Positions 3,554 to 39,133 of a stretch of 49,875 nucleotides of DNA are shown piece by piece (position 1 is the stretch's first letter; every line of letters begins with the position of its first letter). The notes under the pieces are model-generated. The model ran no database searches and was not told the origin of the DNA. It saw only the letters and a list, made by a program, of their open reading frames with translations. Position numbers and translations under genes: made by a program. The stretch is from Actinomycetota bacterium. Its GTDB lineage: Bacteria > Actinomycetota > Acidimicrobiia > Acidimicrobiales > WLNW01. The stretch is from the NCBI GenBank assembly GCA_009699605.1, contig WLNW01000003.1:1-49875 (forward strand). The letters are read 5' to 3'.

Positions 3554-4033
3554 GTGCTCAACGTCGCTTTCTGGTCCTCGGTGATCGTGGCTGCTGCACT
3601 CGTCGGCGGCATCTACTGGTACATGGGCCGCCGTCCGGTTGGCACCCCGCTGACCTGGGGTGAAGCCATGGTCGCCGCGGTCTACGTGTTCTTCTTGCTG
3701 TTCTGGGTCTATGGCGTCGTGCCCCACCAGTGGCTGACCTGGGCCGACAACGAGCTGCGCTGGCGGCCCGACAAGATCTTCCTGCAGCCGCGCACCAAGC
3801 CTGCGGCGTGCTCGTGGGAATGGGGTACGGCCAAGGGCTGCATCAAGTGGCCCCTGCCCATCACCGTGTCCTGGCAGACCTTGCGCGACATCGTTGCCGT
3901 GGGCATCTACGGCATCGAGCTCGGGGGCATGGGCATGCTCTGGGTCAAGTGGCAGAAGCGGGGCCAGAAAGCCGCTGTCGCCGTCGAGAAGTCCGACTTC
4001 GGGCGGCCGCTCGTGCGCGAAGGAAGCAACTGA
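3554..4033 (+). CDS. Uncharacterised integral membrane protein (about 3 TM), first gene of the respiratory operon
   Basis: GTG start after GGGAGGT; three hydrophobic segments; TGA overlaps the next ATG at 4033. Confidence 0.8.
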   Translation: MLNVAFWSSVIVAAALVGGIYWYMGRRPVGTPLTWGEAMVAAVYVFFLLFWVYGVVPHQWLTWADNELRWRPDKIFLQPRTKPAACSWEWGTAKGCIKWPLPITVSWQTLRDIVAVGIYGIELGGMGMLWVKWQKRGQKAAVAVEKSDFGRPLVREGSN

Positions 4034-4449
4034 TGGGGGCCGGTGACGCCAACCCACCGATGCCCGAGTGGAGCGACGGCTATGTCCTCCAAGAGGTCGA
4101 CGCGGAATGGCTCTCGAAGGCGGTCAAGCCCAAGCAATTCATCCACATTGACCAGTCCGAGTGCATCATGTGCGAGGGATGCGTCGACATCTGTCCGTGG
4201 AAGTGCATCCACATGGTCACGCCCGATGTCATTGCTGAGGCAATTGGCACTGAGCGCCCCGGGGCCGACCCCCAAGATCACGTCGTCTTCCTCATCGATG
4301 ACGACGTCTGCACCCGTTGTGCGCTCTGTGTCGACCGGTGCCCCACCGGCGTCATCATCCTCGGCAAGGTCGGCGCGCCGCCGGCCACCGGCGATCCACA
4401 CCAACGCACCAACACGTACGGCTACGGCTACGGCATGCGGCTCGGCTGA
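4033..4449 (+). CDS. 2x[4Fe-4S] dicluster ferredoxin
   Basis: CIMCEGCVDICP and CTRCALCVDRCP motifs; no TM or signal. True start is ATG 4033 (TGATG coupling), not 3730. Confidence 0.9.
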   Translation: MGAGDANPPMPEWSDGYVLQEVDAEWLSKAVKPKQFIHIDQSECIMCEGCVDICPWKCIHMVTPDVIAEAIGTERPGADPQDHVVFLIDDDVCTRCALCVDRCPTGVIILGKVGAPPATGDPHQRTNTYGYGYGMRLG

Positions 4450-4476
4450 GCGCAGAGGAACTAGGAGTACACGACA

Positions 4477-5247
4477 GTGGCGACGACCAAAGCGCCGATC
4501 GGCGAGAAGCTCGCCAAGATCACCCAGCAGGTGCAGGGTTCCCAAGCATGGAACTCGATCTTCCGGCCGGGCTCGATCTTTCGCAAGGGCTACTCGGACA
4601 GCCCACGTAACCGGTCCTACGTGATCATGAACAGCGTGCTGTACCACCTTCACCCCGTGAAGGTGAAGCGTCACGCGGTCAAGGTGAGCTACACGCTGTG
4701 CCTCGGCGGGCTCAGCTTCTTCCTCTTCATCCTGCTCACCGTCACGGGTATCTTCTTGATGTTCTTCTACCGGCCTACTGCGGCCCAGGCGTGGGACGAC
4801 ATCGCCACGCTGAAGTCGTCGGTGACCTTCGGCCTGCTCGTGCGCAACATGCATCGATGGGGGGCGCACCTCATGGTGCTCTCCGTGTTCTTGCACATGG
4901 CGCGCGTCTTCTATCACGGCGCCTACAAGGCGCCGCGCGAGTTCAACTGGATCATCGGCGTCATGTTGTTGCAGCTCACGCTGCTCCTGTCGTTCACCGG
5001 CTACCTGCTGCCCTGGGACCAGCTCGCGCTTTGGGCCGTGACCGTGGGTACCAACATGATGGGTTACACCCCGGTGTTCGGTTCTCAGGTGCGCTTCGTG
5101 CTGCTCGGCGGCAAGGAGATCGGTACCGACACCTTGTTGCGCTGGTATGTGTTGCACGTCTTGCTGCTGCCATTCGTGATCGTCATCTTCATGGCGATCC
5201 ACTTCTGGCGGGTCCGCAAAGACGGCGGCATCTCGGGTCCGCTGTAG
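4477..5247 (+). CDS. petB: Cytochrome b6-like N-terminal subunit (PetB/QcrB type)
   Basis: Four heme-b histidines (MHRWGAHLMVLSVFLH; LHVLLLPFVIVIFMAIH), FTGYLLPWDQ, the CLGG heme-ci cysteine and the C-terminal GISGPL. Confidence 0.92.
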   Translation: MATTKAPIGEKLAKITQQVQGSQAWNSIFRPGSIFRKGYSDSPRNRSYVIMNSVLYHLHPVKVKRHAVKVSYTLCLGGLSFFLFILLTVTGIFLMFFYRPTAAQAWDDIATLKSSVTFGLLVRNMHRWGAHLMVLSVFLHMARVFYHGAYKAPREFNWIIGVMLLQLTLLLSFTGYLLPWDQLALWAVTVGTNMMGYTPVFGSQVRFVLLGGKEIGTDTLLRWYVLHVLLLPFVIVIFMAIHFWRVRKDGGISGPL

Positions 5248-5266
5248 ATCAGGAGACGAGGCAACC

Positions 5267-6067
5267 ATGACCGAAGTTCCTGAACACCTCCGCAAGCGGG
5301 CCGAAGAGGCCAAGGCGAAGGCCGCGGCCAAAGCCGCGGCGGCCGCCGGTGGCGACGCGACCGAGACCACCCCAGCTGCCGCCCCGGCCGCCAGCGGTGG
5401 CGACGCGGCCGGCGCGAGCAAGATCCCCGCGCACCTCCTCGAACGTTCGAAGTCGGCACGCGACAAGGCGGCCGGTGGTGGCGGTACGGCCACGGCGCTC
5501 GCCGAGAAGCCGTCGGGCGGCGTACCGGTGATCGCCGCAGGCGGCCCACCCCCGCTGGTCACCGGGCCGGGTGGTCACACCCAGCGCCTGCTCACCGTGG
5601 TCAAGTCCGGCTCCATCCAGGACGTCAAGGCCACCCCGCAGGACAAGGTGCACACCTGGCCGCACCTGCTCGTCGTCGAGTTCGGCGCCGCGCTGCTGTG
5701 CACGGCGTTCACGCTGCTCTTCTCGGTGTGGGTCAACGCACCGTTCCTCGAGCTGGCCAACTTCAACCAGACGCCGAACCCGTCCAAGGCGCCGTGGTAC
5801 TTCCTCGGCCTCCAGGAAATGCTCACGATGTTCCACCCCATGGTGGCCGGCGTGATGGTGCCCGGTATGGGCCTCTTCGTGCTGGGCGCGGCGCCCTTCA
5901 TTGACAAGAACCCGTCGAACAAGCCCGAGGATCGCAAGTTCGCCATTGCGATCATGACCGTCCACCTTATGTTCTGGGCCACGCTCGTGATGATCGGGTC
6001 GTTCTTCCGCGGCCCGGGCTTCAACTTCGTGTTCCCGTGGAACAAGGGCATCTTCTTCGACCTCTGA
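5267..6067 (+). CDS. petD: Cytochrome b6f subunit IV-like (cytochrome b C-terminal part) with long N-terminal extension
   Basis: WPHLLVVEF, ANFNQTPNPSKAPWYFLG (PEWY-equivalent), APFID; three TM helices. Confidence 0.88.
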   Translation: MTEVPEHLRKRAEEAKAKAAAKAAAAAGGDATETTPAAAPAASGGDAAGASKIPAHLLERSKSARDKAAGGGGTATALAEKPSGGVPVIAAGGPPPLVTGPGGHTQRLLTVVKSGSIQDVKATPQDKVHTWPHLLVVEFGAALLCTAFTLLFSVWVNAPFLELANFNQTPNPSKAPWYFLGLQEMLTMFHPMVAGVMVPGMGLFVLGAAPFIDKNPSNKPEDRKFAIAIMTVHLMFWATLVMIGSFFRGPGFNFVFPWNKGIFFDL

Positions 6068-6112
6068 TGACTACTTCGCTGTGTTCCCCCACCCCCTCTT
6101 GGAGCCGCTGAC

Positions 6113-6970
6113 ATGAACGGAACCATTGTCATCGTCGCCGTGGTCCTTCTCGTGCTGGCGCTCACCACACTTGTCGTGTCGGCCATGAAGCGGCGCGACC
6201 AGGGCATGGCCATCGGCGATCTGTCGCGCGAGACCGTCAAGCGCGACAAGGGTCTCGTCGTGCCCGCGGTCGCGGATGGGGCGCCGCTCACCGGCAAGGA
6301 CATCGAGCGCGCCGCCGCGGCCGACCGAAAGAAGGAACTCGAGCCGGTTGCGCCCAAGTCCCTTGCGCCATGGGTCGCGCCCGATGCCGACGCCATCGGG
6401 GTCAGCCGTCGCCAGTTCCTCAATCGCAGCATCGTCGGCGGCATGGTGCTCTCGCTGTCCACCTTCGGCGCCGCGTGCATCGGCTTCCTGTGGCCCAAGG
6501 TCGGCGGCGGCTTCGGTTCGAAGATCCGCGTCGGCCGCGTGAGCGACCTCCTCCAAGAGATCGAGAAGGCCAACGGCTTCCTCTACCGGGCCGACGGCCG
6601 CATGTGGCTCACCGAATACCCGGCCGGCTCGATCGAGAAGGCCAAGAACATCTATTCATCCGCCGAGCTCAAGGGTATGGAAGCGGGCGTCATCGCCCTC
6701 TACCAGAAGTGCCCACACCTCGGCTGTCGGGTGCCCAGCTGCGCCACCTCGCAGTGGTTCGAGTGCCCGTGCCACGGCTCGCAGTACAACCAGGTCGGCG
6801 AGAAGCGCGGCGGTCCGGCCCCTCGTGGCATGGATCGGTTCACGATGGAGGTCACCCCTGACGGCTTCCTCCTCGTCGACACCGGCTCGGTCATCCCCGG
6901 TCCGCCGATCGGCGTCAACACCACTGGCCAAGAGGCTGAGGGCCCGCACTGCCTGGCCGGCGGACACTGA
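6113..6970 (+). CDS. petC: Rieske [2Fe-2S] subunit (PetC/QcrA type)
   Basis: CPHLGC and CPCHGSQYN boxes, GPAPR, and an internal twin-arginine motif SRRQFLN before a TM helix. Confidence 0.92.
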
Positions 6971-6987
6971 GGGGATAGGGCACACAC

Positions 6988-8211
6988 ATGCTTGTCGCAG
7001 CATCCACACAATCCGCAGTCGGTTGGGTCATCGCCGTCCTCGTCGGCTTCGGTTTCGTCGCGTACATCTACGCGAACACCCGGGCCGCCAAACCCGAGGT
7101 CGGCTCCGAGATCGCGCTCGCGGCCAACCGCAAGCCGCTCGACGATGATCAGGTGCTCGAGACCACCCGTCTCGATCGCTCGCTCTTGTTCGCGCTCTCG
7201 ATGCTCGGCATCATCGCCGTGGCCCTCCCGCTCTACTGGCTCGCCGAACCGGCTCGCATCACCAACGCGGCCGAGGGCTTCACCATCCGCAGCGAGAAGC
7301 GCGGCACGGAGCTCTTCGCCGCCAACTGCGCGCGCTGCCATGGCCCAGGCGGCACGGGAGGCATCATCGCCACCTCGATCACCGATGATGCCGGAGCGTT
7401 CGTGGCCAACGTCAGCTGGAAGGCCCCGGCCCTCACCGCGGTGCTCTCGCGCTTCAGCGAGGAGGAGGTCACCGAGATCTTGAACTACGGGCGCAACGGC
7501 GTGATGCCCGCGTGGGGTGCGCCCGGCGGTGGCCCGCTCACGGTCAACAACCTACGCGACCTCATCATCTACTTGCGCACGGTGCAGCTGCCCGAAGCGA
7601 GCATGCGCGCCAGCGTCGACGGGGGCATCCGAGACGGGGCCAAGGGCGTGATGCTCAGCGAGCGCCCGACCTTGAAGGACGCGCTTGATGCCGCAAACCG
7701 GCTGTCCGATCCTGCAGCCAAGGCAGCGGCTGTCAAGGCGGCCAACGTCGACATCGAGACCTCCCTCGACGCGTTCGTCAAGCAGATCTCCGACCCCGCG
7801 TCGCCGTTCTTCGCCTCGATCTACGGCAAGCTCGTCTTCAGCAACACCGCCGCTCAAGGTGCGTACAGCTGCGCGCGGTGCCACACGACGGGCTGGTCGT
7901 ACAACGCGACCCAGGTCACCAATACGGCTGGCACGCCCCTAGCGGTGAAGTACTCCGACGGCAACGGCTGGTTCGGCCCGTCATTGCAGGGGGGCGCGAC
8001 CACGCGCAAGTTCAACACCTCGGCCACGCATGCCGCGTTCATCACGGGCGGCTCCGAGAAGGGCAAGAAGTACGGCAACGCCGGCATCGGTAGTGGTCAG
8101 ATGCCCGGGTTCGGACCCCGCATCGATGACACGGTGAAGGTGACCTACCCAGCCATCCTCACCGAGGCCGAGATCCAGGCCGTGGTTGCCTACGAAAGGA
8201 GCATGCAATGA
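6988..8211 (+). CDS. Membrane-anchored diheme cytochrome c subunit
   Basis: Two CARCH motifs, each with a downstream Met ligand (GVMPAW, GQMPGF); two N-terminal TM helices. Confidence 0.88.
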   Translation: MLVAASTQSAVGWVIAVLVGFGFVAYIYANTRAAKPEVGSEIALAANRKPLDDDQVLETTRLDRSLLFALSMLGIIAVALPLYWLAEPARITNAAEGFTIRSEKRGTELFAANCARCHGPGGTGGIIATSITDDAGAFVANVSWKAPALTAVLSRFSEEEVTEILNYGRNGVMPAWGAPGGGPLTVNNLRDLIIYLRTVQLPEASMRASVDGGIRDGAKGVMLSERPTLKDALDAANRLSDPAAKAAAVKAANVDIETSLDAFVKQISDPASPFFASIYGKLVFSNTAAQGAYSCARCHTTGWSYNATQVTNTAGTPLAVKYSDGNGWFGPSLQGGATTRKFNTSATHAAFITGGSEKGKKYGNAGIGSGQMPGFGPRIDDTVKVTYPAILTEAEIQAVVAYERSMQ

Positions 8212-9233
8212 GCGTTGCGCTCACGCTCGCCGGTATCTCGTGGGACCCCACCGTCCGCGGCATCATGGTCGTGCTCGTCGGCTCGTCCGTGTTGATGGGA
8301 TCGGTCTGGCTGCTCGTCTCCACCAACGTGGGTGTCCGGCTCGGCACGCTTATCGCCCTGTCCGGCTTCTTCGGCTGGATCTTCATCATGGCGGTCGTCT
8401 GGTGGATCTACGGCATCGGTTGGCAGGGCCTCCCCCCCTCGTGGCAGACCCTCGACATCAACGTGGGCTGCACCAGCCAAACGGTCCAGACCGCCGACTG
8501 CGGCACTGCGGTGTCGGCGGTCGATGAGGCTCGTCGGCTCACCGCGCCCGACAAGCTGCCCGCCGCGTACGATCTCGTTACGACGTCCGACGATGCGGTG
8601 GCCAAGAAGGAATACGCGTCGCCGATCGACCCGGCCAAGCTCGAAGGACTCGCGCCCGCGCAGGCCGCCGCGCTGACCGCCGACTGGAACTCCCGGAACA
8701 AGAACACCACGCTGTCCGAGCTCGCGGCGATCTCGCCGAGCCTGGCCCGCTCGCTCGACTACGGCAAGGGCTGGCGGTTGCTCAACACCGCCCAGAGCGG
8801 CGAAGCGGTGTCCACTGCCTCCGCGCACGTCGTCGAAGAGGGCTACTTCGCCGACGCCACCGGGTTCAAAGTGCTGAACTCGTTCGATCTCGGCGGCAAG
8901 GTCCGGCTGAACGCCAACCCAACCCGCGGCGATCGCATCGTCCGCGAGCTGCGCATCGCGACGCAGATCTTCAGCCCGCCGCACTACACCGTGGTGCAAG
9001 TCCGCGCTGTGGTGCCCCAGACGGCGGCCCCGGGCGAGGCCCCACCACGGCCGGTTCTCGACCAGAACTCACCGATCATCTCGGTCGTGATGGAACGCGA
9101 CCTGGGCAACAAGCGCCTCTATCCGTTCCTCACCGCCCTCGGGTCGCTCCTGTTGTTCATCGTTACGGCCACGATGCTGCACTACCGGGACAAAGAAGCC
9201 ATGGCGCGCCGCGCGGCGGCCGGGACAAGGTGA
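8208..9233 (+). CDS. Uncharacterised membrane protein (2 N-terminal TM, large soluble domain, 1 C-terminal TM)
   Basis: ATGA overlap with the cytochrome c stop; hydrophobicity pattern; ends 8 bp before nuoA. Confidence 0.8.
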   Translation: MSVALTLAGISWDPTVRGIMVVLVGSSVLMGSVWLLVSTNVGVRLGTLIALSGFFGWIFIMAVVWWIYGIGWQGLPPSWQTLDINVGCTSQTVQTADCGTAVSAVDEARRLTAPDKLPAAYDLVTTSDDAVAKKEYASPIDPAKLEGLAPAQAAALTADWNSRNKNTTLSELAAISPSLARSLDYGKGWRLLNTAQSGEAVSTASAHVVEEGYFADATGFKVLNSFDLGGKVRLNANPTRGDRIVRELRIATQIFSPPHYTVVQVRAVVPQTAAPGEAPPRPVLDQNSPIISVVMERDLGNKRLYPFLTALGSLLLFIVTATMLHYRDKEAMARRAAAGTR

Positions 9234-9241
9234 TCTGAACC

Positions 9242-9742
9242 ATGGTCGTCGCGTCGAACCTCGGGCAATACCTGCCGATCGTCCTCATGATGGGACTGGC
9301 TGCGGCGTTCGCCGCGGGTTCGTTCGTGGCGTCCGGCCTACTGGCCCCACGCTCCCCGAATGATCGCAAGCGAGCCCCGTACGAGTGCGGCATCATCCCG
9401 GCCAAGGAGACTCCCGAGCGCTTCCCGGTGCGGTTCTTCCTGATCGCGATGATCTTCATCGTCTTCGACATCGAGATCATCTTCTTCTACCCCTGGGCGA
9501 TCGCCCACAAAGAGGTCGGATGGTTCGGCCTGGTCGCCGTGCTCATCTTCTCGTTCGCCGTGTTCGAGTCGTTCGTCTACCTGATCGCCAACGGTGCCCT
9601 CGAGTGGGGCCCAGTGAAGCGACTGCGTGACGTATCGGCCACCATGCGGTTGACCGACATGCGGTCGGCCGAGCGCACCAGCACGAGCACCATTCGTCGC
9701 GTGGGTCTCGAAGGCCGCGAAGAGGGCGGAGAGGCAGCCTGA
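9242..9742 (+). CDS. nuoA: NADH-quinone oxidoreductase subunit A
   Basis: [38 protein letters not shown]; about 45 aa C-terminal extension. Confidence 0.95.
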
Positions 9743-9743
9743 C

Positions 9744-10325
9744 ATGGGACTCATCACTGACGTTCGCGATCACGGCTTCGAAGGACTCGAGCACAACTTC
9801 CTCACCGGCAAGCTCGAGGATTTCGTCAAATGGTCCCGGGCCCGCAGCTGCTGGCCGGCCACCTTCGGTCTGGCCTGTTGTGCCATCGAGATGATGGCCA
9901 CGGGTGCGGCGCACTACGACCTGTCGCGCTACGGCATGGAGGTCTTCCGCGCCTCGCCGCGCCAGGCCGATCTGATGATCGTCGCCGGTCGGTTGTCCCA
10001 GAAGATGGCTCCGGTCCTGCGCCAGATCTACGACCAGATGATGGAACCCAAGTGGGTCATCAGCATGGGCGTGTGCGCATCATCGGGTGGCATGTTCAAC
10101 AACTACGCAATCGTGCAGGGCGTCGATCAGATCGTTCCGGTCGACGTCTACGCCCCCGGGTGCCCGCCAGGCCCCGAGACCCTGATGCACGCCATCTTCA
10201 CCCTGCACGACCTCATCCAGTCGGGTGAGCTCACCCAACGCCGCGAGGCCACCGGCCGGGGCGCAGGAGTGCTCGTCGAGCAGCGCGACGGGCAAGCGGT
10301 ACCCGTCATCATCGGAAGCCGCTGA
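9744..10325 (+). CDS. nuoB: NADH-quinone oxidoreductase subunit B
   Basis: [25 protein letters not shown] (cluster N2 ligands). Confidence 0.97.
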
Positions 10326-10327
10326 GC

Positions 10328-10855
10328 ATGGCCGACCAAGATCCGGGCGCTGCCGCGGGCGATGCCGCAACCGAACCGCCGCGCCGCCACGGAGCGCTCG
10401 TCGCGTCCTCGCGCGGCCAGACCGTCCTGCACGCCGAGCGGGCCCAGTTGCGGACCCTCGTGGCTGCGCTCACCGCTGAAGGATTCGATCAGCTCATCGA
10501 TGTCACCGCGGTCGACTACTCCGTGGCCGACCAGCCCCGCCCGCTTCCGGCGGAGGTCGTGCCCGAGCGATTCGAGGTCGTGGTTGGGCTGTTGTCGCAC
10601 GGTTCGCGCGAACGAGTCCGAATCCGAGTGCAGGTGCCCGAGTCCGAACCCACCGTGCCGTCACTGTTCGACGTGCACCCCGGGTGCGAGGCGCTCGAGC
10701 GCGAGGTCTTCGACATGTTCGGCATCGTGTTCGAAGACCATCCCGATCTGTCACGCATCCTGATGCCCGAGGACTGGATCGGCCATCCCCTGCGCAAGGA
10801 TTACGCCGTCGGGCGTATACCGGTGCAATTCAAGGGCGCACCGTCGTCGCGGTGA
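10328..10855 (+). CDS. nuoC: NADH-quinone oxidoreductase subunit C
   Basis: EREVFDMFGIVFEDHPDLSRILMPEDWIGHPLRKDY. Confidence 0.95.
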   Translation: MADQDPGAAAGDAATEPPRRHGALVASSRGQTVLHAERAQLRTLVAALTAEGFDQLIDVTAVDYSVADQPRPLPAEVVPERFEVVVGLLSHGSRERVRIRVQVPESEPTVPSLFDVHPGCEALEREVFDMFGIVFEDHPDLSRILMPEDWIGHPLRKDYAVGRIPVQFKGAPSSR

Positions 10856-10865
10856 AGGGATCCAC

Positions 10866-19479: not shown

Positions 19480-19484
19480 GGGCA

Positions 19485-27893: not shown

Positions 27894-28426
27894 TAGAGAG
27901 CGGCAAGTCACCAAAGCTGCTCACCACGTTGCTCAACGTGAGCCGGAAGTACTCCCTGTGGATGTACCAGTGGGGCCTCGCGTGCTGCGCCATCGAGATG
28001 GGCGCGGCCATGGGCTCGCCCCGCTACGACGTCATGCGACTCGGCGTCATTCCGCTGCCCGCTAGCCCACGCCAGGCCGACCTGCTGTGCGTCTCGGGCA
28101 CCGTCACCGACAAGATGGCGCCCGCCGTGCTGCGGCTGTACGAGCAGATGCCCGAACCGAAGTACGTGATCTCCATGGGCAGCTGCGCGAACTGTGGCGG
28201 CCCCTACTGGGACAGCTACTCGGTCACCAAGGGCGTCGATCAGATCATCCCGGTCGACGTGTACGTCCCGGGCTGCCCGCCCCGCCCGGAAGCGTTGCTC
28301 GAAGGCATCGTCCTGCTCCAGGAGCGCATTCGCAACGAGGACCCGGCCGAGCGCTGGCGCGGCGCCCCGATCATCGTGCAGGACAACGCGGCCCGGCCTG
28401 TGGCCCCAGCAGAGGTGCCGGCATGA
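27884..28426 (+). CDS. nuoB: Complex I-like subunit B (second copy)
   Basis: [28 protein letters not shown]. Start set at GTG 27884. Confidence 0.94.
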
Positions 28427-31291: not shown

Positions 31292-31830
31292 TGGCCAAGC
31301 CGAAGATCCCGGGTGTCCTGAAAGGTCTGGGCATCACCGCCAAGACCATGGTCGAGACGATGTTCCCGGACGGGCCCAAAGGGCCACCGTCGCCGTCCAA
31401 GGGCGCGGTCACGGTGCAGTACCCGCACGAGAAGGAAACGCCCGCGCCTCGCTCGCGTGGCGTCATCGCGCTCAAGGAGGAGAACTGCACTTCGTGCATG
31501 CTCTGCGCGCGCGAGTGTCCCGACTGGTGTATCTACATCGAGGCGCACAAGACGAAGGCGCCGCCCCGGCGGGCCGGCGGCAAGCCGCGCAAGGTCAATC
31601 AGCTCGACCGCTTCGACATCGATTTCTCGTTGTGCATGTACTGCGGCATCTGTGTCGAGGTGTGCCCGTTCGACGCGCTGTTCTGGAGCCCCGAGTACGA
31701 GTTCAGCGAGTTCCGTATCGCCGACCTTCTCCACGACAAGTCGCGCCTGGCCGAGTGGATGGAGACCGTGCCCGACTTCGAGCCTTATGAGGCCGGTAGC
31801 CAGGCCAAGGTCAAGAAGGTGCCACGCTGA
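31291..31830 (+). CDS. nuoI: Complex I-like subunit I (second copy)
   Basis: [12 protein letters not shown] and [12 protein letters not shown]. Start ATG 31291 (TGATG). Confidence 0.94.
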
Positions 31831-32369
31831 TGCTGGCCGCCCTCCTCGCGCAGGCGAACCCCACTGGTGACGGCCTCTTCGTCGCGCAAAACATCGCCTT
31901 CGGCGTTATCGCGGCGGTCATGTTGGTCTCGGCGTGGCGGGTCGTCACGACCAAGAACGTGGTGCACGCCGCGCTCTACCTCGTGATCGTGCTCGCCGGC
32001 GTGGCCGCCCAGTTCCTGTTGCTCGGCGCCGAGTTCATCGGCGTCACGCAGGTGCTCGTCTACATCGGTGCGGTCATCGTGCTGTTCCTGTTCGGCATCA
32101 TGCTCACCCGGGCGAAGCTCGGCGAGGATGACACCGTGGCTCGCGAGCACCGGCTCATGGCGGCGCTTGTCGGCGTGCTGCTCTTCGGCGTGATGGCGTG
32201 GGCCGTCGTCGACGACTACAGCGACACCCACGTCGACATCGTGTCGCCGAACACCACGGCCATGGTCAGCGATGCGATCTTCTCCCAGTACCTGATCCCC
32301 TTCGAGGTGGTGTCGATGTTGCTCCTCGCCGCACTCATCGGGGCCATCGTCGTGGCCAGGAAGGACTGA
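31830..32369 (+). CDS. nuoJ: Complex I-like subunit J (second copy)
   Basis: NVVHAAL, QVLVYIGAVIVLFLFGIML, PFEVVSMLL. Confidence 0.94.
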   Translation: MLAALLAQANPTGDGLFVAQNIAFGVIAAVMLVSAWRVVTTKNVVHAALYLVIVLAGVAAQFLLLGAEFIGVTQVLVYIGAVIVLFLFGIMLTRAKLGEDDTVAREHRLMAALVGVLLFGVMAWAVVDDYSDTHVDIVSPNTTAMVSDAIFSQYLIPFEVVSMLLLAALIGAIVVARKD

Positions 32370-32370
32370 G

Positions 32371-32670
32371 ATGCTCCTCAACCAGTTCCTCCTCCTTGCC
32401 GCGGCATTGTTCTGCATCGGCGTTTACGGCGTGCTGGCCCGCCGAAATGCCGTGCTTGTGCTGATGTCGGTCGAGTTGATCCTCAACGCGGTCAACATCA
32501 ACTTCGTGGCGTTCGGAGCGTTCAACCGCACGGTGGCCGGCGAAGTCTTCGGTCTGTTCGTCATCGCCGTCGCCGCGGCCGAGGTGGGCGTCGGGCTCGC
32601 CATGGTTCTCCTCCTGTACCGCAACCGCAAGAGCATCGACCTCACTGAAGTCGATCTCATGAAGGGCTGA
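32371..32670 (+). CDS. nuoK: Complex I-like subunit K (second copy)
   Basis: RRNA...ELILNAVN...AAAEVGVGLA, C-terminal MKG. Confidence 0.95.
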   Translation: MLLNQFLLLAAALFCIGVYGVLARRNAVLVLMSVELILNAVNINFVAFGAFNRTVAGEVFGLFVIAVAAAEVGVGLAMVLLLYRNRKSIDLTEVDLMKG

Positions 32671-32672
32671 GC

Positions 32673-34940
32673 GTGAACGCCCTCCTGTTAGCCAACGAGA
32701 CAGCCGCAAGCGCTGGATGGATGCTCCGCAACGCCTGGATCATCCCGTTCATCCCCGCGATGTCGTTCCTGCTCATCCTCCTCATCGGCAAGCGCACACC
32801 CGGTAAGGGTCACTGGATCGGCATCGCCGCGGTATCCGCCGCGTTCGTGCTGTCCGCCATCGCAGGCGTGCAGTGGATCCAGCACGTCAACGACGCGCAT
32901 CACGCGTCAGGCTCTGAAGAGCAGGCCTTGTCGGTGGGCGGCGGCACGCTCGCGGCAAAGACCGAAAGCCCCACCGCCGGCGCAGCACCAGCCGAAGGCG
33001 AGTCCGCAGCCGCCGAAGAGGAGCACGTCGCTGTGGCGCCGGTGCGCAACTCGGTCACCTGGTACGAGAACGAGGGCACGAACGTCAAGGTCGGCACGCT
33101 CGTCGACGGGCTCTCGGTCATGATGCTCGTGGTCGTCACGCTCATCTCCCTGCTGGTGCACATCTACTCCACCGATTACGTGCACGGCGACCGTCGCTAC
33201 ACCCATTACTTCGCGTTTCTCAGCTTGTTCACCGCGTCCATGCTCACCTTGGTCATCGCCGAGAACACATTGATGCTGCTCTGCGCCTGGGAGCTGGTGG
33301 GCGTCTGCTCGTTCGCCCTTATCGGTCACTGGTGGGAAGAGCAGCCGAACTCCGACGCAGCCCTCAAGGCGTTCCTCACCAACCGCGTCGGCGACATGGG
33401 CCTCATCATCGGCGTCACCATCCTCTACTTCGCCGCGGGCAAGAGCTTCGACATCGTGAAGATCAACGAGATGGCGAACTCGGGCGAGATCCGGCAGTTC
33501 TTGCTGCTGGTCGCGTCGTGCTGCCTCATCGCCGCAGTGGCGTCGAAGTCGGGTCAGTTCATCCTCCACACGTGGTTGCCCGACGCCATGGCCGGTCCCA
33601 CCCCGGTATCGGCGCTCATCCACGCAGCCACCATGGTCGTGGCGGGCGTCTTCATGGTGGCCCGCCTCTACTCGGTGTTCTTCCACGGTCTCACCATCCC
33701 CGGCTCGAGCATCAACCTCTTGGCGCTCGTCGGTGCGGTCACCCTCATCGGCGGCGCCCTGCTGGCGTTCGTCCAGAACGACATCAAGAAGGTGCTCGCG
33801 TACTCGACCATCAGCCAGCTCGGCTACATGGTCATGGCGCTCGGTGTCGGCGCATGGACCGCGGCCGTCTTCCACCTCTTCACGCACGCCTTCTTCAAGG
33901 CGTGCCTGTTCCTCGGCGCCGGCTCGGTGAGCCATGCGTGCCACCACAGCTTCGACATGAAGGCCGAGATGGGTGGGCTGCGCAAGATCATGCCCCGCAC
34001 CTTCTGGACCTTCGTCATTGCCACCGGGGCGCTCATCGGCATCTTCCCGCTCGCCGGCTTCTGGTCGAAGGACGAAATCCTCGCCGGCACCGGCGGCTGG
34101 CCCGACACCCACGGCACTGGCACGTACTACGCAATGCTCATCATGGGGATGCTTGGTGCCGCGCTCACTGCGGCGTACATGACCCGTGTGATCTACCTCA
34201 CGTTCTTCGGTCAGTACCGCGGGCACAGCCACCCGCACGAGAACGGGCCGCGCATCACCATCCCGCTCATCATCCTCGCGGTGTTCGCGGTCGGTGCTGG
34301 CTTCCTCAACCTGCCGCCGGGCGTGTTCGGTGCCGGCGACGCCCATCACCCCACGGGTTGGCAGGAACGGTTCGGGCACTACGTCGAACCCGTCGGCAAG
34401 TACTTCCCCGACGTCGTCCACGCGACACCGAGCTACCTCCTGGCCATTGTGTCGAGCGCGATCGGACTCGCCGGCGTTGCCGCGGCGTACGCCTATTACC
34501 GCAAGGTCGAGACCCGGTCCCGCGCCGAAGGGCGCAAGCTCACCGAGTTGCCCGACGGCATCACCACCCGGTCGAAACCGGCCAAGGCCTTCCATACGTT
34601 GCTCGTGAACAAGTACTACCTCGATCACTTGTACAACAACGTCATCGTCGCCGGCATCAAGGGCCCAATCGCCCGGGCCGCGTACTGGTTCAACCAGCAC
34701 GGCATCGACGCCTCGGTCAACGCAGTCGGCAAGGGTTCCGTCATCGGCGGCAAGTTCCTCTATACCTACTTCGACCAGAAGGTCGTTGACGGTGCAGTCA
34801 ACGCGTCGGGCACCCTCTCGAGCGGTGTCGGCGAAGAGCTGCGCCACATCCAGACCGGCAAGGTCCAGCAGTACGCGTTGCTCCTCTTCGGAGGCACAAC
34901 CGTGCTCGCCGGCATCTTCCTCATCCTCCTCACTACGTAG
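32673..34940 (+). CDS. nuoL: Complex I-like subunit L (second copy)
   Basis: WELVG, NRVGD, KSGQF, WLPDAMAGPTPVSALIHAATMV, HAFFKAC. Confidence 0.95.
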   Translation: MNALLLANETAASAGWMLRNAWIIPFIPAMSFLLILLIGKRTPGKGHWIGIAAVSAAFVLSAIAGVQWIQHVNDAHHASGSEEQALSVGGGTLAAKTESPTAGAAPAEGESAAAEEEHVAVAPVRNSVTWYENEGTNVKVGTLVDGLSVMMLVVVTLISLLVHIYSTDYVHGDRRYTHYFAFLSLFTASMLTLVIAENTLMLLCAWELVGVCSFALIGHWWEEQPNSDAALKAFLTNRVGDMGLIIGVTILYFAAGKSFDIVKINEMANSGEIRQFLLLVASCCLIAAVASKSGQFILHTWLPDAMAGPTPVSALIHAATMVVAGVFMVARLYSVFFHGLTIPGSSINLLALVGAVTLIGGALLAFVQNDIKKVLAYSTISQLGYMVMALGVGAWTAAVFHLFTHAFFKACLFLGAGSVSHACHHSFDMKAEMGGLRKIMPRTFWTFVIATGALIGIFPLAGFWSKDEILAGTGGWPDTHGTGTYYAMLIMGMLGAALTAAYMTRVIYLTFFGQYRGHSHPHENGPRITIPLIILAVFAVGAGFLNLPPGVFGAGDAHHPTGWQERFGHYVEPVGKYFPDVVHATPSYLLAIVSSAIGLAGVAAAYAYYRKVETRSRAEGRKLTELPDGITTRSKPAKAFHTLLVNKYYLDHLYNNVIVAGIKGPIARAAYWFNQHGIDASVNAVGKGSVIGGKFLYTYFDQKVVDGAVNASGTLSSGVGEELRHIQTGKVQQYALLLFGGTTVLAGIFLILLTT

Positions 34941-34966
34941 CGCGAAGCCAAGGGAAAGAACAGAAC

Positions 34967-36553
34967 ATGGACTTCCTGGAAACCTGGGGAATCAGCATTG
35001 CGGTGTTCGTGCCGGTCATCGGCGCGCTTGTCGTCATGCTCATCCCGAAGTCGTGGGGCGAGGACCTGTACAAGCAGGTCGCCCTTGCGGTGTCGCTCGT
35101 GTCCGGCGGCTTCGGCATCGCGATGCTGGTCAACTTCAACTTCGATGACACCGGCCGGTTGCAGTACCTGGTCGACAAGAAGTGGATCGAAGCGATCAGC
35201 TCGCGCTACATCGTGGGCCTCGACGGCATCTCGCTGCCGTTGTTCCTCCTCACGCTGCTGATCGTGCCGCTGTGCATCATCTACAGCTGGAACCACTTCC
35301 CCGAGCCGCACAACCCGAAGGCGCTTCTCGCGCTGATCCTGCTGCTCGAGACCGGCATGCTCGGCTCGTTCGTGGCTCAAGACCTCATCTTGTTCTTCGT
35401 CTTCTTCGAAGTGGTCCTACTCCCGATGTTCTTCATGATCGCGGTGTGGGGCGGGGAAAAGCGCCAGTACGCGTCGTTGAAGTTCTTCCTCTTCACGCTG
35501 TTCGGATCGGCGCTGATGATCCTCAGCTTCCTTGCGATGTTCTTCCTTGCCGATCCGCACACCTTTGACATGCGTGCGCTGCCGACCGCCCTGCAAGGCG
35601 TCGCACTCAGCACCCAGGTGTTGATTTTCCTCGGCATGCTCATTGGCCTTGGCATCAAGGTCCCGATGTTCCCGTTCCATACGTGGTTGCCCGACGCCCA
35701 CACCCAGGCGCCCACGGTCGGTTCGGTGATCCTGGCTGCGGTGCTGCTGAAGCTCGGCACCTACGGCTTCGTGCGCATCGCGATCCCGATCCTGCCCGCC
35801 GCCGCCGTGAAGGTGGCACCCCTCATCGGCGTGCTGGCGGTGATCGGCATCATCTACGGCGCGCTCGGGTGTCTCGCCCAGACTGACATGAAGCGGCTCA
35901 TCGCGTTCTCGTCGGTGGCCCACATGGGCTTCGTGATGCTCGGCATCTCGACGCTCACCCAATTCGGCATCAACGCCGCGATATTTGGCATGGTCGCCCA
36001 CGGCCTCATCACCGGCATGTTGTTCTTCATCGCCGGTTCGGTGAAAGAGCGCTATCACACCCTCGAGATCTCCAAGCTCGGCGGACTGCTACTCGACGCC
36101 CCCAAGATGGGTTGGCTTCTCGGGCTCTGCGTGATGGCGTCGCTCGGTCTGCCTGGTCTCGCCGGGTTCTGGGGCGAGTTCCCGGCGATCTTGTCGTCGT
36201 ACAGCCCGGCCCATGGGCTCAACGTCGAGCTTTATCGCATCTTCATGGTCATCTCGGCGCTCGGTACCGTGCTCGCCGCTGGCTACCTGCTGTGGTTGCT
36301 TCAGCGCGTCGCATTCGGGCCGAGCAAGAGCCACGGCGACGGTCACGAGCAGATCCACGACATGCACGTCAGCGAGGGTCTGGCGTGGGCCCCGCTGATC
36401 GCGCTCATCGTCGCCCTCGGCGTCTACCCGGGGATCATGTTCAAGTCCACCGACGCCGCCGTGGCCAAGAGCTTGGCCGCCTGTCTCGTCGACGACAAGG
36501 GCCCGACCTGTCCGGAGCTCGCCGACATGCTCCACGCCGAACGAGGGAAGTAA
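34967..36553 (+). CDS. nuoM: Complex I-like subunit M (second copy)
   Basis: KVPMFPFHTWLPDAHTQAPTVGSV, LKLGTYG, GLPGLAGFWGEF. Confidence 0.95.
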   Translation: MDFLETWGISIAVFVPVIGALVVMLIPKSWGEDLYKQVALAVSLVSGGFGIAMLVNFNFDDTGRLQYLVDKKWIEAISSRYIVGLDGISLPLFLLTLLIVPLCIIYSWNHFPEPHNPKALLALILLLETGMLGSFVAQDLILFFVFFEVVLLPMFFMIAVWGGEKRQYASLKFFLFTLFGSALMILSFLAMFFLADPHTFDMRALPTALQGVALSTQVLIFLGMLIGLGIKVPMFPFHTWLPDAHTQAPTVGSVILAAVLLKLGTYGFVRIAIPILPAAAVKVAPLIGVLAVIGIIYGALGCLAQTDMKRLIAFSSVAHMGFVMLGISTLTQFGINAAIFGMVAHGLITGMLFFIAGSVKERYHTLEISKLGGLLLDAPKMGWLLGLCVMASLGLPGLAGFWGEFPAILSSYSPAHGLNVELYRIFMVISALGTVLAAGYLLWLLQRVAFGPSKSHGDGHEQIHDMHVSEGLAWAPLIALIVALGVYPGIMFKSTDAAVAKSLAACLVDDKGPTCPELADMLHAERGK

Positions 36554-36556
36554 CCC

Positions 36557-38050
36557 GTGCTGGCCGAGGTCGCATTCACCGCACCACACGTCGATTTCGC
36601 GGCGCTGGCACCCGAGATCGTCCTCACCGCGGGCGCCGTGCTCGTGATCCTCCTCGACGCGCTCGCGCTCGACAAGATCAAGCCGTTCATCTCGATCATC
36701 ACCGGGGCCACCCTGCTCGGCGCCATGATCCCGATCCTGTGGCTCGCGAACAACGGCGTCGACCGGTCGCTGTTCGGCGGAGCGTTTGTGGTCGACAACT
36801 TCGCCCTCCTGTTGAAGGCGATGTTCTTGCTGTCGGGTTACGTCGTGGTGCTGCTCGCCATGAACTACATCGCCGAAGGCGACTACTGGGAGAGCGAGTT
36901 CTACGCGATGATGCTGTCATCGCTGCTCGGCATGGTGGTCATGTGCTCGGCGCGCGACCTCCTCACGATCTTCGTTGCGCTCGAGCTGCTGTCGATCCCG
37001 GCGTACATGCTCGCCACGTGGCGCAAGCGCGACCTCAAGAGCAACGAAGCCGGCATCAAGTACTACCTGATGGGCGTGTTCGCCTCGGCCATCATGTTGT
37101 ACGGCATGTCGCTCGTTTTCGGCGCGTCGGGCAGCACGCTGCTGACCGACGTCGCGAAGGGGCTCTCTGGCGACAATGTCCGCCCCACCGCGGTAGTCGG
37201 CATCTTGTTCGTGGTCATCGGCTTCGCCTTCAAGGTCTCGGCGTTCCCCTTCCACGCGTGGGCCCCCGACACCTACGAAGGCGCGCCCACCCCGGTCACC
37301 GCGTTCTTGGCAGTTGCCTCGAAGGCCGCCGGTTTCGTGGCCATCGTGCAGCTGATCTACGTCGGCTTCGGCACACGCGAAGATGTGTACCAGCCACTGC
37401 TCTGGGTCTTGGCTGCTGGTTCCATGACCGCCGGCAACCTCATGGCACTGCGGCAGAAGAACATCGTGCGCCTTATGGCGTACTCCGGCATCGCCCAGGC
37501 TGGCTACATGCTCGCCCCCCTCGTGGTGGCGGGCAATGACAAGGTCGGCGATAAGCCCCTGCAGGCCATCGTCGGGTATCTCGTCATCTACGCGGCCATG
37601 AACCTCGGCGCCTTCGGCGTGATCATGGCGGTGGCTCGCAAGACCCGCTCGGCCGAGATCTCCTCGTTCCGTGGGTTGTTCCACTACGCGCCGGCGCTCA
37701 CCGTGGCCATGACCGTCTTCTTGATGTCGCTCGCGGGAATCCCGCCGCTCGCCGGTTGGTATGCCAAGTTCCAGGTGCTCAGCGCGTTGATCTCGGCCGA
37801 GAACGCGTCGGGCGTGGCCATGGGCATCCTCGTGGGCGTCAACTCGGTGATCGCGCTCTACTACTACGGCACGATCGCCCGTTCGATGTGGGCCGACGAC
37901 GCGCCCGATGGCGACCTCACCCCGGTGCGCGTGCCGCCGGCGCTCGTGTCGGCCATTGTGATCACTGCCGCAGTCACCGTGGTGTTCGGTGTCCTGCCGC
38001 AGGCCATCGGCCACTTCACCAACGGCGGTCTCCTGGCCATCGGTGGGTGA
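36557..38050 (+). CDS. nuoN: Complex I-like subunit N (second copy)
   Basis: EAGIKYY, FKVSAFPFHAWAPDTYEGAPTP, RLMAYS, GIPPLAGWYAKF. Confidence 0.95.
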   Translation: MLAEVAFTAPHVDFAALAPEIVLTAGAVLVILLDALALDKIKPFISIITGATLLGAMIPILWLANNGVDRSLFGGAFVVDNFALLLKAMFLLSGYVVVLLAMNYIAEGDYWESEFYAMMLSSLLGMVVMCSARDLLTIFVALELLSIPAYMLATWRKRDLKSNEAGIKYYLMGVFASAIMLYGMSLVFGASGSTLLTDVAKGLSGDNVRPTAVVGILFVVIGFAFKVSAFPFHAWAPDTYEGAPTPVTAFLAVASKAAGFVAIVQLIYVGFGTREDVYQPLLWVLAAGSMTAGNLMALRQKNIVRLMAYSGIAQAGYMLAPLVVAGNDKVGDKPLQAIVGYLVIYAAMNLGAFGVIMAVARKTRSAEISSFRGLFHYAPALTVAMTVFLMSLAGIPPLAGWYAKFQVLSALISAENASGVAMGILVGVNSVIALYYYGTIARSMWADDAPDGDLTPVRVPPALVSAIVITAAVTVVFGVLPQAIGHFTNGGLLAIGG

Positions 38051-38098
38051 GCGCCCGCCCCGAGATGACCGAGCCCGCGGTGTGAACGTGTCCCAGAA

Positions 38099-39133
38099 GT
38101 GAACGCCCTCGCCGCGTCGCTCGCCGCAGTCATCCGACGCGATGGCCCGATCACCTATTCCGCGTTCATCGAGGCGGCGCTGTACGACGCCGATCATGGC
38201 TTCTACGAAACGGGTGGCGCGGCCGGGCGCCGTGGTGACTTCCTGACGAGCCCGGAGGTCGGTCCGCTATACGGTGCCGTGGTCGCTCGCGCCCTCGATT
38301 CGTGGTGGTTCGATCTCGGCTGCCCGGAGGAGTACCCGGTCGTCGAGTGCGGCGCCGGACCCGGGACCTTGGCCCGTTCGGTGCTGGCCGCGCGCCGCGA
38401 GCTGGCGTGTGGCGACGCGCTGCGCTACATCACTGTCGAGCGGTGCGCGACCCAGCGCCTGCGCCACCCGGATGGCGTGGAAGCCCGCGAATCGTTCGAC
38501 CTCGGGCCGTTCACCGGAGTGGTTTTCGCCAACGAACTGCTCGACAACCTGCCCTTCGATCTTCTCGAGTGGCGCGGCGGTGGTTGGCACGACGTACTAA
38601 TCGACGCAGCCGCCGACGACACGTTCACCGAGGTCCTCGGCGACCTGGTCGACAACCCGTCGCGCCCGCCTACAGGAACGGAAGGGGCGCGGTTGCCGCT
38701 TCAACCCGCGGTCACCGCCTTCCTCGCCGACGCGCTGGCCCGCCTCGAACACGGCCACGTCGTGCTCGTCGACTACATGTCCGCCAACACCGGTTTCCTC
38801 GACCGCTCGTGGCCCACGTGGGTGCGCACGTACCGCGGTCACGAACGTGGCGGGCATCCCCTCGACGAACCGGGCACCCAGGACATCACGTGCGAGGTCG
38901 CGCTCGACGCGCTGCTTGGGGTTGCGGCGCCGCGCGAGGTCAGCACGCAGGCCGAGTTTCTCGCCGCGTACGGCATCGACGAACTGGTCGAAGAAGGCCG
39001 GGCCTCGTGGCAGGCCGGTGCGGGCATCGGCGACCTCGCCGCGCTCCGCGGCCGAAGCCGCATCCGCGAGGCAGAAGCGCTGTGCGCCGCCGACGGTCTC
39101 GGCGGGTTCACCGTGATGCACTGGGTACGCTGA
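38099..39133 (+). CDS. SAM-dependent methyltransferase, MidA/NDUFAF7 family
   Basis: GPITYSAFIEAALY...GFY, GDFLTSPE, VECGAGPGTLA, FANELLDNLP, LVDY, PGTQDIT are hallmark motifs of the MidA/NDUFAF7 (DUF185) family. Confidence 0.88.
   Translation: MNALAASLAAVIRRDGPITYSAFIEAALYDADHGFYETGGAAGRRGDFLTSPEVGPLYGAVVARALDSWWFDLGCPEEYPVVECGAGPGTLARSVLAARRELACGDALRYITVERCATQRLRHPDGVEARESFDLGPFTGVVFANELLDNLPFDLLEWRGGGWHDVLIDAAADDTFTEVLGDLVDNPSRPPTGTEGARLPLQPAVTAFLADALARLEHGHVVLVDYMSANTGFLDRSWPTWVRTYRGHERGGHPLDEPGTQDITCEVALDALLGVAAPREVSTQAEFLAAYGIDELVEEGRASWQAGAGIGDLAALRGRSRIREAEALCAADGLGGFTVMHWVR

Follow-up and report, generated by a model that had tools for sequence, protein, structure and literature searches.

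A respiratory super-locus of Acidimicrobiia with a b6-type complex III, a probable ferredoxin subunit and two complex I operons

Layout of the locus and its b6-type complex III

The stretch of DNA analysed here, hereafter the window, comprises 49,875 nucleotides of contig WLNW01000003.1 (GenBank assembly GCA_009699605.1; Actinomycetota bacterium, order Acidimicrobiales). It has a G+C content of 63–69% and belongs to a genome of 3.45 Mb in 277 contigs, with an estimated completeness of 96%. It carries a conserved respiratory super-locus of Acidimicrobiia in which the genes of a b6-type complex III, of a complete complex I (nuo1) and of a second, 11-gene complex I-like enzyme (nuo2) lie side by side (Table 1). 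Our main concern is the gene for a protein with two [4Fe-4S] motifs (Fd), the second of a seven-gene set that opens with a small membrane protein (mp159) and continues with cytochrome b6 (petB), subunit IV (petD), a Rieske protein, a dihaem cytochrome c and a further membrane protein (mp341).

Gene calls were obtained from a listing of open reading frames combined with Pfam and NCBIfam family scans. From mp159 through nuoA the intergenic distances are −1, 27, 19, 45, 17, −4 and 8 bp, the ATG of Fd overlapping the stop codon of mp159 by one base. Among the genes of the run 3554–24858 no terminator-like site was found between genes, the sole site lying inside nuoA; the promoter scan of 3000–10000, which is uninformative for this phylum, returned no sigma-70-like promoter. 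These coordinates agree with an initial annotation of the window, which had described a ferredoxin gene directly before a b6-type cytochrome b in a same-strand run with gaps of 45 bp or less that continues into nuoA-N, and had noted a second nuo operon lacking nuoEFG about 2.7 kb further on. The measured distance from the nuoN1 stop to the start of nuo2 is 2574 bp, and no nuoE, nuoF or nuoG gene is present between nuoD2 and nuoH2. The start given there, 3554, is indeed that of the seven-gene set, but it belongs to mp159, and Fd starts at 4033. Three open reading frames listed in that annotation (3554–4033 as the ferredoxin, 4043–4624 and 4698–5270) had no Pfam match; the true Fd and petB lie in other frames, and the other-frame reading frames across 4043–5270 were discarded as spurious.

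Cytochrome b is split in this organism, the PF00033 and PF00032 domains being encoded by separate reading frames 19 bp apart. The petB product is a four-helix b6 protein with an N-terminal extension of about 65 residues. In an alignment of 38 petB sequences, the CxGG motif with the haem-ci cysteine (C75-L-G-G) and His126, His140, His227 and His242 were invariant (38/38); the histidines are spaced by 14 (H126/H140) and 15 (H227/H242) residues, which we take to be the spacing of b6 proteins. The closest solved chains in a PDB sequence search were cyanobacterial and plant b6 (E 1e-47), the actinobacterial QcrB following at E 1e-24. The petB product passes the NCBIfam model ExtP (306.9 bits, cut-off 290), and that of petD fails ExtQ (46.4 bits, cut-off 150). 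Subunit IV has a long low-complexity N-terminal extension with two IPxHL(L/R)xR(S/A) motifs, and its Qo motif A175-P176-W177-Y178 was invariant in 31/31 aligned sequences. We therefore place the complex in the APWY clade, a placement based on this motif and the published clade definition rather than on a tree.

The stretch 3554–9233 is thus predicted to encode a b6-type quinol:cytochrome c oxidoreductase of the APWY clade, presumably with menaquinol as its substrate, and the only Rieske/cytochrome b complex of the organism. No cytochrome b gene other than petB/petD was found in the 96%-complete genome, which contains two haem-copper oxidase genes, and a search for photosynthetic reaction-centre genes (PF00124, PF00223) in which the controls responded found none. 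The seven-gene set may therefore be regarded as the housekeeping quinol:cytochrome c oxidoreductase of an aerobe. The haem-ci b6-type complex recognized in the initial annotation is thus borne out by the split cytochrome b, the invariant CxGG and the structural matches to b6, and the lack of photosynthesis genes that it reported for the window extends, as far as reaction centres are concerned, to the whole genome. By the same token, its analogy with cyclic electron flow fails on the defining part.

Several short motifs of this complex deserve mention. Within the petB extension (residues 1–68, encoded by 4477–4680) the residues Y56-H57-L-H59-P and R65-H66 are invariant, as is R245-V-R247-K248 at the C-terminus. 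An AlphaFold3 study of the Kuenenia complexes predicts, in the part of the article available (PMC12954380), an additional b haem at the cytochrome b dimer interface with a histidine ligand and nearby C-terminal Arg/Lys residues. The predicted histidine falls in the same N-terminal region as H57 and H59 of petB, the residue correspondence being putative. The nine-residue motif (I/V)P(E/A)HL(L/R)xR(S/A) occurs at the start of petD (5276–5302), again about 50 residues further on (5423–5449) and, as IPEHLLERS, in the N-terminal, cytoplasmic part of the divergent cytochrome c (3127–3153, minus strand), whose gene is located upstream in most of the 80 order-level loci described below. As a regular expression the motif has six matches in the genome, four of them within the window, and only three look genuine; the N-terminal copy of petD is conserved class-wide. 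It may represent a docking peptide shared by petD and the divergent cytochrome c.

Between the two nuo operons lies a double CoA-transferase gene, with four near full-length paralogues in the genome (43–45% identity) and more than 20 weaker ones.

Table 1. Features of the respiratory locus; positions are those of the window.
Feature	Position	Strand	Matches and motifs
Divergent monohaem cytochrome c (271 residues)	2413..3228	−	PF00034, PF13442
mp159, small hydrophobic membrane protein	3554–4033	+	Pfam/NCBIfam: no match
Fd, 138-residue 2x[4Fe-4S] protein	4033–4449	+	Fer4 families, two CxxCxxCxxxCP motifs
petB, cytochrome b6	4477–5247	+	PF00033, E 1e-45
petD, subunit IV	5267–6067	+	PF00032
Rieske [2Fe-2S] subunit	6113–6970	+	PF00355; CPHLGC and CPCHGS in translation
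Membrane-anchored dihaem cytochrome c	6988–8211	+	PF00034; two CxxCH sites in translation
mp341, membrane protein, last of the seven-gene set	8208–9233	+	Pfam/NCBIfam: no match
nuoA-N, complete 14-subunit NADH:quinone oxidoreductase	9242–24858	+	Pfam for all 14 subunits
Double CoA-transferase family III protein (809 residues), between both nuo operons	24868–27297	−	
nuo2: nuoA,B,C,D,H,I,J,K,L,M,N (11 genes)	27432–38050	+	Pfam; nuoM2/nuoN2 by paralogy only
Methyltransf_28 (NDUFAF7/MidA family) gene, 3′ of nuoN2	38099–39133	+	PF02636, E 1.9e-28

The ferredoxin as a candidate subunit of the complex

Conservation of the Fd gene was followed in 80 order-level loci of Acidimicrobiia, taken from named genome records, and in 20 class-level loci chosen across other families of the class. 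Conservation beside petB in relatives, on which the initial annotation had staked its proposal, was found throughout: Fd directly precedes petB in 80/80 and 20/20 loci, that is, in 100/100. The mp159 gene precedes Fd in 78 of the 80 order-level loci, the remaining two being cut by a contig end, and in 17 of the 20 class-level loci; among the 80, gene order through mp341 is retained wherever the contig reaches. Locus L064, from the cultivated Salinilacustrithrix flava, is an example that contains the full set. Across these 80 loci the identity to the window is 78–96% for Fd and 71–93% for petB, the other products ranging lower: 46–64% for the Rieske protein, 33–52% for cytochrome c, 38–82% for mp159 and 29–56% for mp341.

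The protein itself is distinctive. A word-indexed collection yielded 2076 homologues, of which the best 120 are 80–95% identical and nearly all 137–138 residues long; clustering at 50% left very few full-length clusters. All eight cluster cysteines are invariant in 41 aligned sequences, and conservation extends beyond the clusters to an N-terminal VKPKQF(I/L)HID segment and a C-terminal GYxYGxR tail. A 30-residue insert separates the two clusters. Free soluble 2x[4Fe-4S] ferredoxins have about 55–80 residues; with its 138 residues, its conserved extensions and a gene tied to petB in 100/100 loci, Fd falls outside this definition. The protein is presumably soluble, inspection of the sequence by eye having revealed no hydrophobic stretch or signal peptide. 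Its neighbour mp159 ends in an S-x-[YF]-G-R-P tail that is invariant in the alignment. The tails S-x-(Y/F)-G-R-P of mp159 and G-Y-x-Y-G-x-R of Fd are both short, class-wide terminal motifs, and they could be contact peptides. Three of the 50% representatives (P0132, P0139, P0208) seemed to join mp159 to Fd, but these probably reflect read-through across frameshifts and were set aside.

A PDB sequence search with Fd returned generic dicluster domains only (FwdF, MvhB, NdhI, NuoI) and no chain associated with a Rieske/cytochrome b complex. The most distant full match was of another kind, namely the C-terminal dicluster domain of a 615-residue Fer4_20 + Pyr_redox_2 protein (41% identity over 86 residues, E 8e-20). 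Proteins of this type are GltD-like NAD(P)/FeS oxidoreductases of about 600 residues with the architecture Fer4_20 + Pyr_redox_2 + Fer4_7. In five other Actinomycetota genomes (loci L128–L132 of G347, G203, G359, G262 and G238) the gene for such an oxidoreductase immediately precedes a second petB-petD-Rieske-cytochrome c cluster in 5/5 loci, where it holds the operon slot that Fd holds in the window. These second clusters showed no match to mp159 or mp341, and their subunit IV is short. Fd itself has Fer4 domains only, with neither the flavin adenine dinucleotide (FAD)/NAD(P) domain nor Fer4_20.

Complex prediction and transcript data bear on the same question. When petB, petD and mp159 were modelled against Fd, the median score was 0.41 (0.40, 0.46 and 0.41), the best control reaching 0.02; the partners had a predicted local distance difference test (pLDDT) of at least 63, and contact agreement between runs was at least 46%. 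Replacement of petD lowered the score to 0.02. The mark used for such predictions is passed by 58/80 solved complexes and by 2/110 mismatches, only 7 of the 80 solved complexes scoring 0.60 or below. The run of Fd with PetB and PetD that the initial annotation had proposed scored 0.41 against 0.02 for the best control, and its outcome is graded as weak support. Four freshwater metatranscriptome studies supplied RNA-library contigs that match portions of each of the seven genes at 92–100% identity, and single contigs bridge mp159/Fd (3963–4212 and 3994–4144) and Fd/petB (4418–4580); such contigs cannot prove a single transcript, and carry-over of DNA is possible. Those of the four metatranscriptome runs leave 8782–9249, the mp341/nuoA junction, uncovered. 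An RNA joint in one run that would skip 3312 letters was disregarded, its shorter side comprising only 21 letters.

The most likely role of Fd is that of a subunit fixed to the cytoplasmic (n-) face of the b6-type complex, because its gene adjoins petB, it is conserved much as petB is, a homologous oxidoreductase domain occurs in the same operon slot, docking received weak support and RNA contigs bridge the genes. It would be held by subunit IV, cytochrome b6 and perhaps mp159, and would represent a stripped-down docking-and-wire module of the larger GltD-like oxidoreductases. Its clusters would extend the chain of haems bn and ci into the cytoplasm, and the Qi side may thereby gain an electron port to or from a low-potential partner. 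The initial annotation had left two options, a fixed subunit of an enlarged Rieske/cytochrome b–complex I supercomplex or a shuttle between the Qi face and Nuo2; adjacency, conservation, homology and docking favour a fixed subunit, the grounds for the shuttle being circumstantial. As a whole, we put the probability at about 0.65 that the locus encodes three neighbouring enzymes: a b6-type complex III with Fd as a fixed n-side subunit, an ordinary Nuo1 and a distinct Nuo2. Our literature search, from which subscription journals and supplements were out of reach, found no account of an Fd subunit in an actinobacterial b6-type complex.

Several observations weigh against this interpretation. The complex prediction, graded as weak support, used alignments that we built ourselves, a monomer of the complex and no haems, and the AlphaFold2 model of the Fd monomer is poor (mean pLDDT 55, predicted template modelling score 0.37). 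Two genomes of the class keep petB without an Fd gene: in G096, mp159 is followed by petB after about 190 bp, and in G198 an mp159-like gene directly precedes petB. Fd would therefore be dispensable for the core complex. Moreover, the strong co-occurrence and linkage of Fd with nuo2, the lack of both in G096 and the want of any other conserved donor for Nuo2 leave room for a functional link between the two. Finally, the genome showed no free-standing 2x[4Fe-4S] protein other than Fd and a subunit resembling the delta subunit of 2-oxoacid:ferredoxin oxidoreductases.

The second complex I and possible wirings of the ferredoxin

The 11-gene composition of nuo2, lacking nuoEFG, is the same in 20/20 loci of the class, nuoA2 being detected in 13/20 at the threshold used. 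Identity to the nuo1 paralogues is 30–48% (27–48% for NuoB2, C2, D2 and I2). NuoB2 keeps the N2 cysteines (CC...C...C pattern), NuoI2 two full [4Fe-4S] motifs, and NuoD2 the His-rich HPxxHG loop. At the R-x-D-Y segment of NuoD, the tyrosine of which we take to be a quinone ligand of complex I, NuoD2 has tryptophan in 20/20 loci (RIDW, residues 88–91, in the window at 29355–29366), whereas NuoD1 has tyrosine in 55/55. Orphan NuoD2-like genes also encode tryptophan, and the single 11-gene nuo of another family keeps tyrosine. A Methyltransf_28 gene follows nuoN2 in 15/20 loci of the class. In the flanks of the 20 nuo2 loci no conserved redox gene was found and only the methyltransferase is widespread, genes for a phosphodiesterase and a patatin-like lipase being local neighbours in 8 and 6 loci, respectively.

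Because of this uniform composition, the methyltransferase in 15/20 loci, the tryptophan (20/20) against the tyrosine of NuoD1 (55/55) and flanks without a conserved redox gene, Nuo2 is, as judged from its genes, a distinct complex I-like lineage with an apparently intact Fe-S chain, an altered NuoD pocket and its own NDUFAF7-like methyltransferase. The 9-Mb genome G251 likewise carries an NDUFAF7/MidA-family gene (L125:8024–8767) beside an orphan NuoD2-like gene. These positions, after nuoN2 and beside the orphan, suggest that the methyltransferase is a NuoD2-specific modification enzyme of the 11-subunit, not of the 14-subunit, complex I.

The association of Fd with nuo2 was assessed in 201 genomes of the class (thresholds E 1e-30 for Fd, E 1e-100 for nuoD2 and E 1e-100 for petB). 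Fd was found in 177, a nuoD2 ortholog in 188 and a petB ortholog in 183. Seven genomes of families f4, f5 and f10 lack b6-type petB, Fd and nuoD2 and have a distant cytochrome b only. Seven others have a petB ortholog without a strong Fd match (G096, G198, G112, G140, G164, G054 and G190); in G112, G140 and G164 petB lies no more than 212 bases from the contig start. In a phylum sample of 251 genomes, Fd and a nuoD2-like gene occurred together in 99, Fd alone in 6, a nuoD2-like gene alone in 27 and neither in 119 (90, 6, 26 and 119 when ten unpublished genomes are left out). The co-occurrence that the initial annotation had predicted is therefore present, 99 of the 105 Fd-bearing genomes also having nuo2, although kinship of the genomes confounds it. 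Among the six genomes with Fd only, four are 63–90% complete, G248 has two NuoH-like copies and G273 is 98% complete, with no nuoD2 or nuoH2 ortholog found. The genomes with a nuoD2-like gene only are heterogeneous, comprising orphan genes (G251, G291) and one rearranged 11-gene nuo with tyrosine (G202), and thus offer no clean case of nuo2 without Fd.

On the map, Fd and nuoD2 lie within 60 kb of each other in 61/66 same-contig pairs (median 27 kb, hand tally), pairs that in fragmented assemblies are close by construction; on contigs longer than 1 Mb they lie within 40 kb in 10/15 pairs (hand tally). Outside the class the distance is 30–60 kb in several families (e.g. G374, G286, G231, G208, G263) and about 300 kb in one family (G214, G309, G371). 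Three genomes are discordant: G198 has an intact nuo2 without Fd, G150 has Fd and a nuo2 in pieces, and G273 was described above. Counted as separate events, these three stand against about two co-losses, one in the f4/f5/f10 clade and one in G096, which has neither Fd nor nuo2 and keeps petB. The association of Fd and nuo2 in distribution and map position is real and old, but the genomes are related and not independent, the separate events are few, and the tie of Fd to petB is far closer than that to nuo2.

What, then, feeds Nuo2? The cyanobacterial ferredoxin-oxidising NDH-1 has ferredoxin-docking accessory subunits (NdhS, NdhV and NdhO). For 11-subunit enzymes in general, the donor is an open question according to the available text of PMC11238625. 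Reduced coenzyme F420 (F420H2), entering through an FpoF-like subunit, might serve here, or else Nuo2 might borrow NuoEFG from the first operon; we consider this pair of solutions unlikely. F420 has been proposed as the donor for the nuo2 of Ca. Actinomarinales (PMC7771536, in the part available). The window genome encodes a 391-residue Fer4 + FrhB_N + FrhB_C protein (contig C115:4337–5512, L133) with the architecture of FpoF, to which it aligns over nearly the full length (132.9 bits, cut-off 475), as well as the F420 ligase CofE (contig C31:2565–3155), and the organism probably makes and uses F420. As a general partner of Nuo2, however, the FpoF-like protein was rejected, since its distribution does not track nuo2. 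It was not found (E 1e-20) in 47/47, 19/20, 8/8, 9/9 and 6/6 genomes of families f18, f15, f22, f24 and f27, nearly every sampled genome of which carries a nuoD2 ortholog, and it is present in the nuo2-lacking f4 (5/5), f10 and G096. For another bacterium, it has been suggested that two isozymes draw on a single nuoEFG set (PMC4453560, in the part available); here NuoB2, C2, D2 and I2 are only 27–48% identical to their nuo1 paralogues.

Alternatively, Fd could be a soluble carrier between the Qi/haem-ci face and Nuo2, in a non-photosynthetic counterpart of cyanobacterial cyclic flow. The phylum-wide co-occurrence, the joint lack of petB, Fd and nuoD2 in the seven f4, f5 and f10 genomes, the absence of Fd and nuo2 from G096 and the short map distances would all fit such a carrier, as would the open question of the donor of 11-subunit enzymes (PMC11238625, as above). 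So would the retention of Fd, petB and nuo2 in genomes of about 1 Mb, in five of which no protein has two Fer4 motifs above the cut-off except the two NuoI paralogues and the Fd of the operon; a weak Fer4 match was also seen there in a conserved reading frame of 86–99 residues. In the window genome, Fer4 and motif scans revealed as other small dicluster protein only the delta-like subunit of a 2-oxoacid:ferredoxin oxidoreductase, the genes of which imply the need for an acceptor, next to one small Fer4_15 ferredoxin. We nevertheless find this alternative quite improbable. Fd and nuo2 are both near-universal in the same deep-branching, related lineages, fragmented assemblies inflate the linkage, with only 10/15 pairs within 40 kb on contigs longer than 1 Mb, and the three discordant genomes speak against a carrier. 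Fd never strays from petB in 100 loci, and its extensions are untypical of free ferredoxins. Furthermore, no circuit would arise if both enzymes merely oxidise reduced Fd, and reduction of Fd by the complex would presumably drive electrons against the membrane potential.

Equally hard to credit, in our estimate, is a single Fd-wired assembly in which Fd, a fixed part of the b6-type complex, would also make contact with Nuo1 or Nuo2. Here the seven genes and nuoA-N form one gap-free run, and nuoA follows mp341 in 60/80 order-level loci, the other 20 ending earlier; nuo2 usually lies 20–60 kb from Fd and has no input module of its own, nor is one conserved in its flanks. In class-wide loci, however, nuoA follows mp341 in only 4/20, so that the joining of the seven genes with nuo1 characterises this order and certain others and is no general property of the complex; co-transcription is not proof of contact, and G198, G273 and G150 are again discordant. 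We favour three neighbouring enzymes instead, in which nuoA-N would encode an ordinary NADH-oxidising complex I that shares, in this order, a transcription unit with the complex III genes. As an aside on nuo1, five loci (L043, L046, L064, L074, L076) show no nuoE or nuoF match after nuoD1 in the remaining 2 kb or so, and the operon may be interrupted or differently arranged there.

Two further possibilities are more doubtful still. Fixed on the b6 complex, Fd might exchange electrons directly with Nuo2 as its missing input module, a very improbable arrangement in which a low-potential quinol branch, or Fd reduced by 2-oxoacid oxidoreductases, would feed into a complex I module that pumps protons; if true, it would constitute an undescribed wiring of complexes III and I and a working example of the purpose of haem ci. 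As to biogenesis, b6-type complexes need dedicated haem-ci factors, such as the chloroplast CCB system. That Fd, mp159 and mp341 are assembly factors, for instance for covalent haem-ci attachment or cytoplasmic cofactor reduction, would fit this requirement, the lack of family matches for mp159 and mp341, the two genomes with petB but no Fd and the GltD-type clusters without mp159 or mp341 matches, but we find it very improbable as well, given that Fd is as conserved as the catalytic petB, that its homologous domain forms the C-terminal end of a large oxidoreductase whose gene takes the same slot in the operon, that the Kuenenia complexes reportedly include members of this oxidoreductase family (PMC5600118, in the part available) and that docking received weak support.

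Significance and relation to known systems

If Fd is indeed built in, the complex would be a naturally occurring b6 type whose haem-ci/Qi side carries a protein-bound electron port. Entry of ferredoxin into b6f has been argued for decades in photosynthesis research, and aerobic, cultivable actinobacteria would make the question testable without photosystems. Moreover, an entire class that is abundant in the environment has this b6-type complex as its sole complex III, and metabolic reconstructions easily overlook it, since a KEGG-based paper on genomes of a related order gives complex III as missing (PMC7771536, in the part available). In the genomes of about 1 Mb of family f18 (genus g35), petB is present in 44/47, together with Fd and nuoD2. 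If f18 corresponds to the streamlined marine group of that paper, the missing complex III would be an annotation gap. Nuo2, with its tryptophan pocket and its own NDUFAF7-like methyltransferase, would offer a clean case for the donor question of 11-subunit complex I-like enzymes.

The pairing of the nuo operons is already published for the class. Lopez-Perez et al. (2020; PMC7771536) describe, in the part of the article available, a 14-gene and a truncated 11-gene nuo cluster in Ca. Actinomarinales, also members of Acidimicrobiia, with F420 as proposed donor for the latter, and state from KEGG that complex III is missing in streamlined marine Acidimicrobiia. The likeness to the window lies in the class and in two nuo clusters, one without EFG; under the terms 'ferredoxin', 'cytochrome b' and 'NDUFAF7' the available text mentions neither the b6/Fd operon nor the methyltransferase. 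The names nuoA2, nuoB2, nuoD2 and nuoH2 are in use in the accessible Streptomyces literature.

With regard to complex III, the window shares with the APWY clade a split cytochrome b with the Qo motif APWY. According to the available text of Kao and Hunte (2014; PMC4122944), no complex of that clade has been characterised, and the split cytochrome b of Ilumatobacter belongs to the PEWY-cyt c or the APWY clade. The latter probably overlaps with subfamily G of Dibrova et al. (2017; PMC5600118, in the part available). The stand-alone 138-residue Fd and the two membrane proteins are not described in the available text of these two papers, the supplementary tables and operon figure of which may show the neighbourhood. 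Geobacter ExtP and ExtQ (NF040969, NF040970) are related in that petB scores above the ExtP cut-off, but petD stays below that of ExtQ; the name ExtP reflects a selenite/tellurite context for which the window offers no support. The b6f complex of cyanobacteria and chloroplasts and the b6c complexes of firmicutes and heliobacteria are similar in their four-helix b6 with CxGG, separate subunit IV and Rieske protein. They differ from the window complex, which has no photosystems beside it, APWY in place of PEWY, no cytochrome f, an Fd gene in the operon, the b6 N-terminal extension of some 65 residues and the long N-terminal extension of subunit IV. Ferredoxin input at haem ci is nonetheless a long-discussed idea for b6f (PMC5600118, in the part available).

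The architecture of the GltD-like oxidoreductases is that reported from anammox bacteria, whose Rieske/cytochrome b complexes are considered to include an NAD(P) oxidoreductase (PMC5600118, in the part available). The AlphaFold3 study of 2025 (PMC12954380, in the part available) places this oxidoreductase on the negative side, with a chain of clusters besides the interfacial b haem. The Kuenenia stuttgartiensis complexes Kuste4569-4574 and Kustd1480-1485 share with the window, in that account, a b6-like cytochrome b, subunit IV, a haem-cN site and a negative-side Fe-S protein. The comparison with Kuenenia is one of descriptions; in proteins of the same architecture, the C-terminal dicluster domain is a homologue of Fd. 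The window has the dicluster module only, without the FAD/NAD(P) and Fer4_20 domains; its cytochrome c is of the dihaem type where those of Kuenenia are hexa- or octahaem proteins, and its organism is an aerobe. The Kuenenia gene order recurs in 5/5 of the actinobacterial paralogue clusters.

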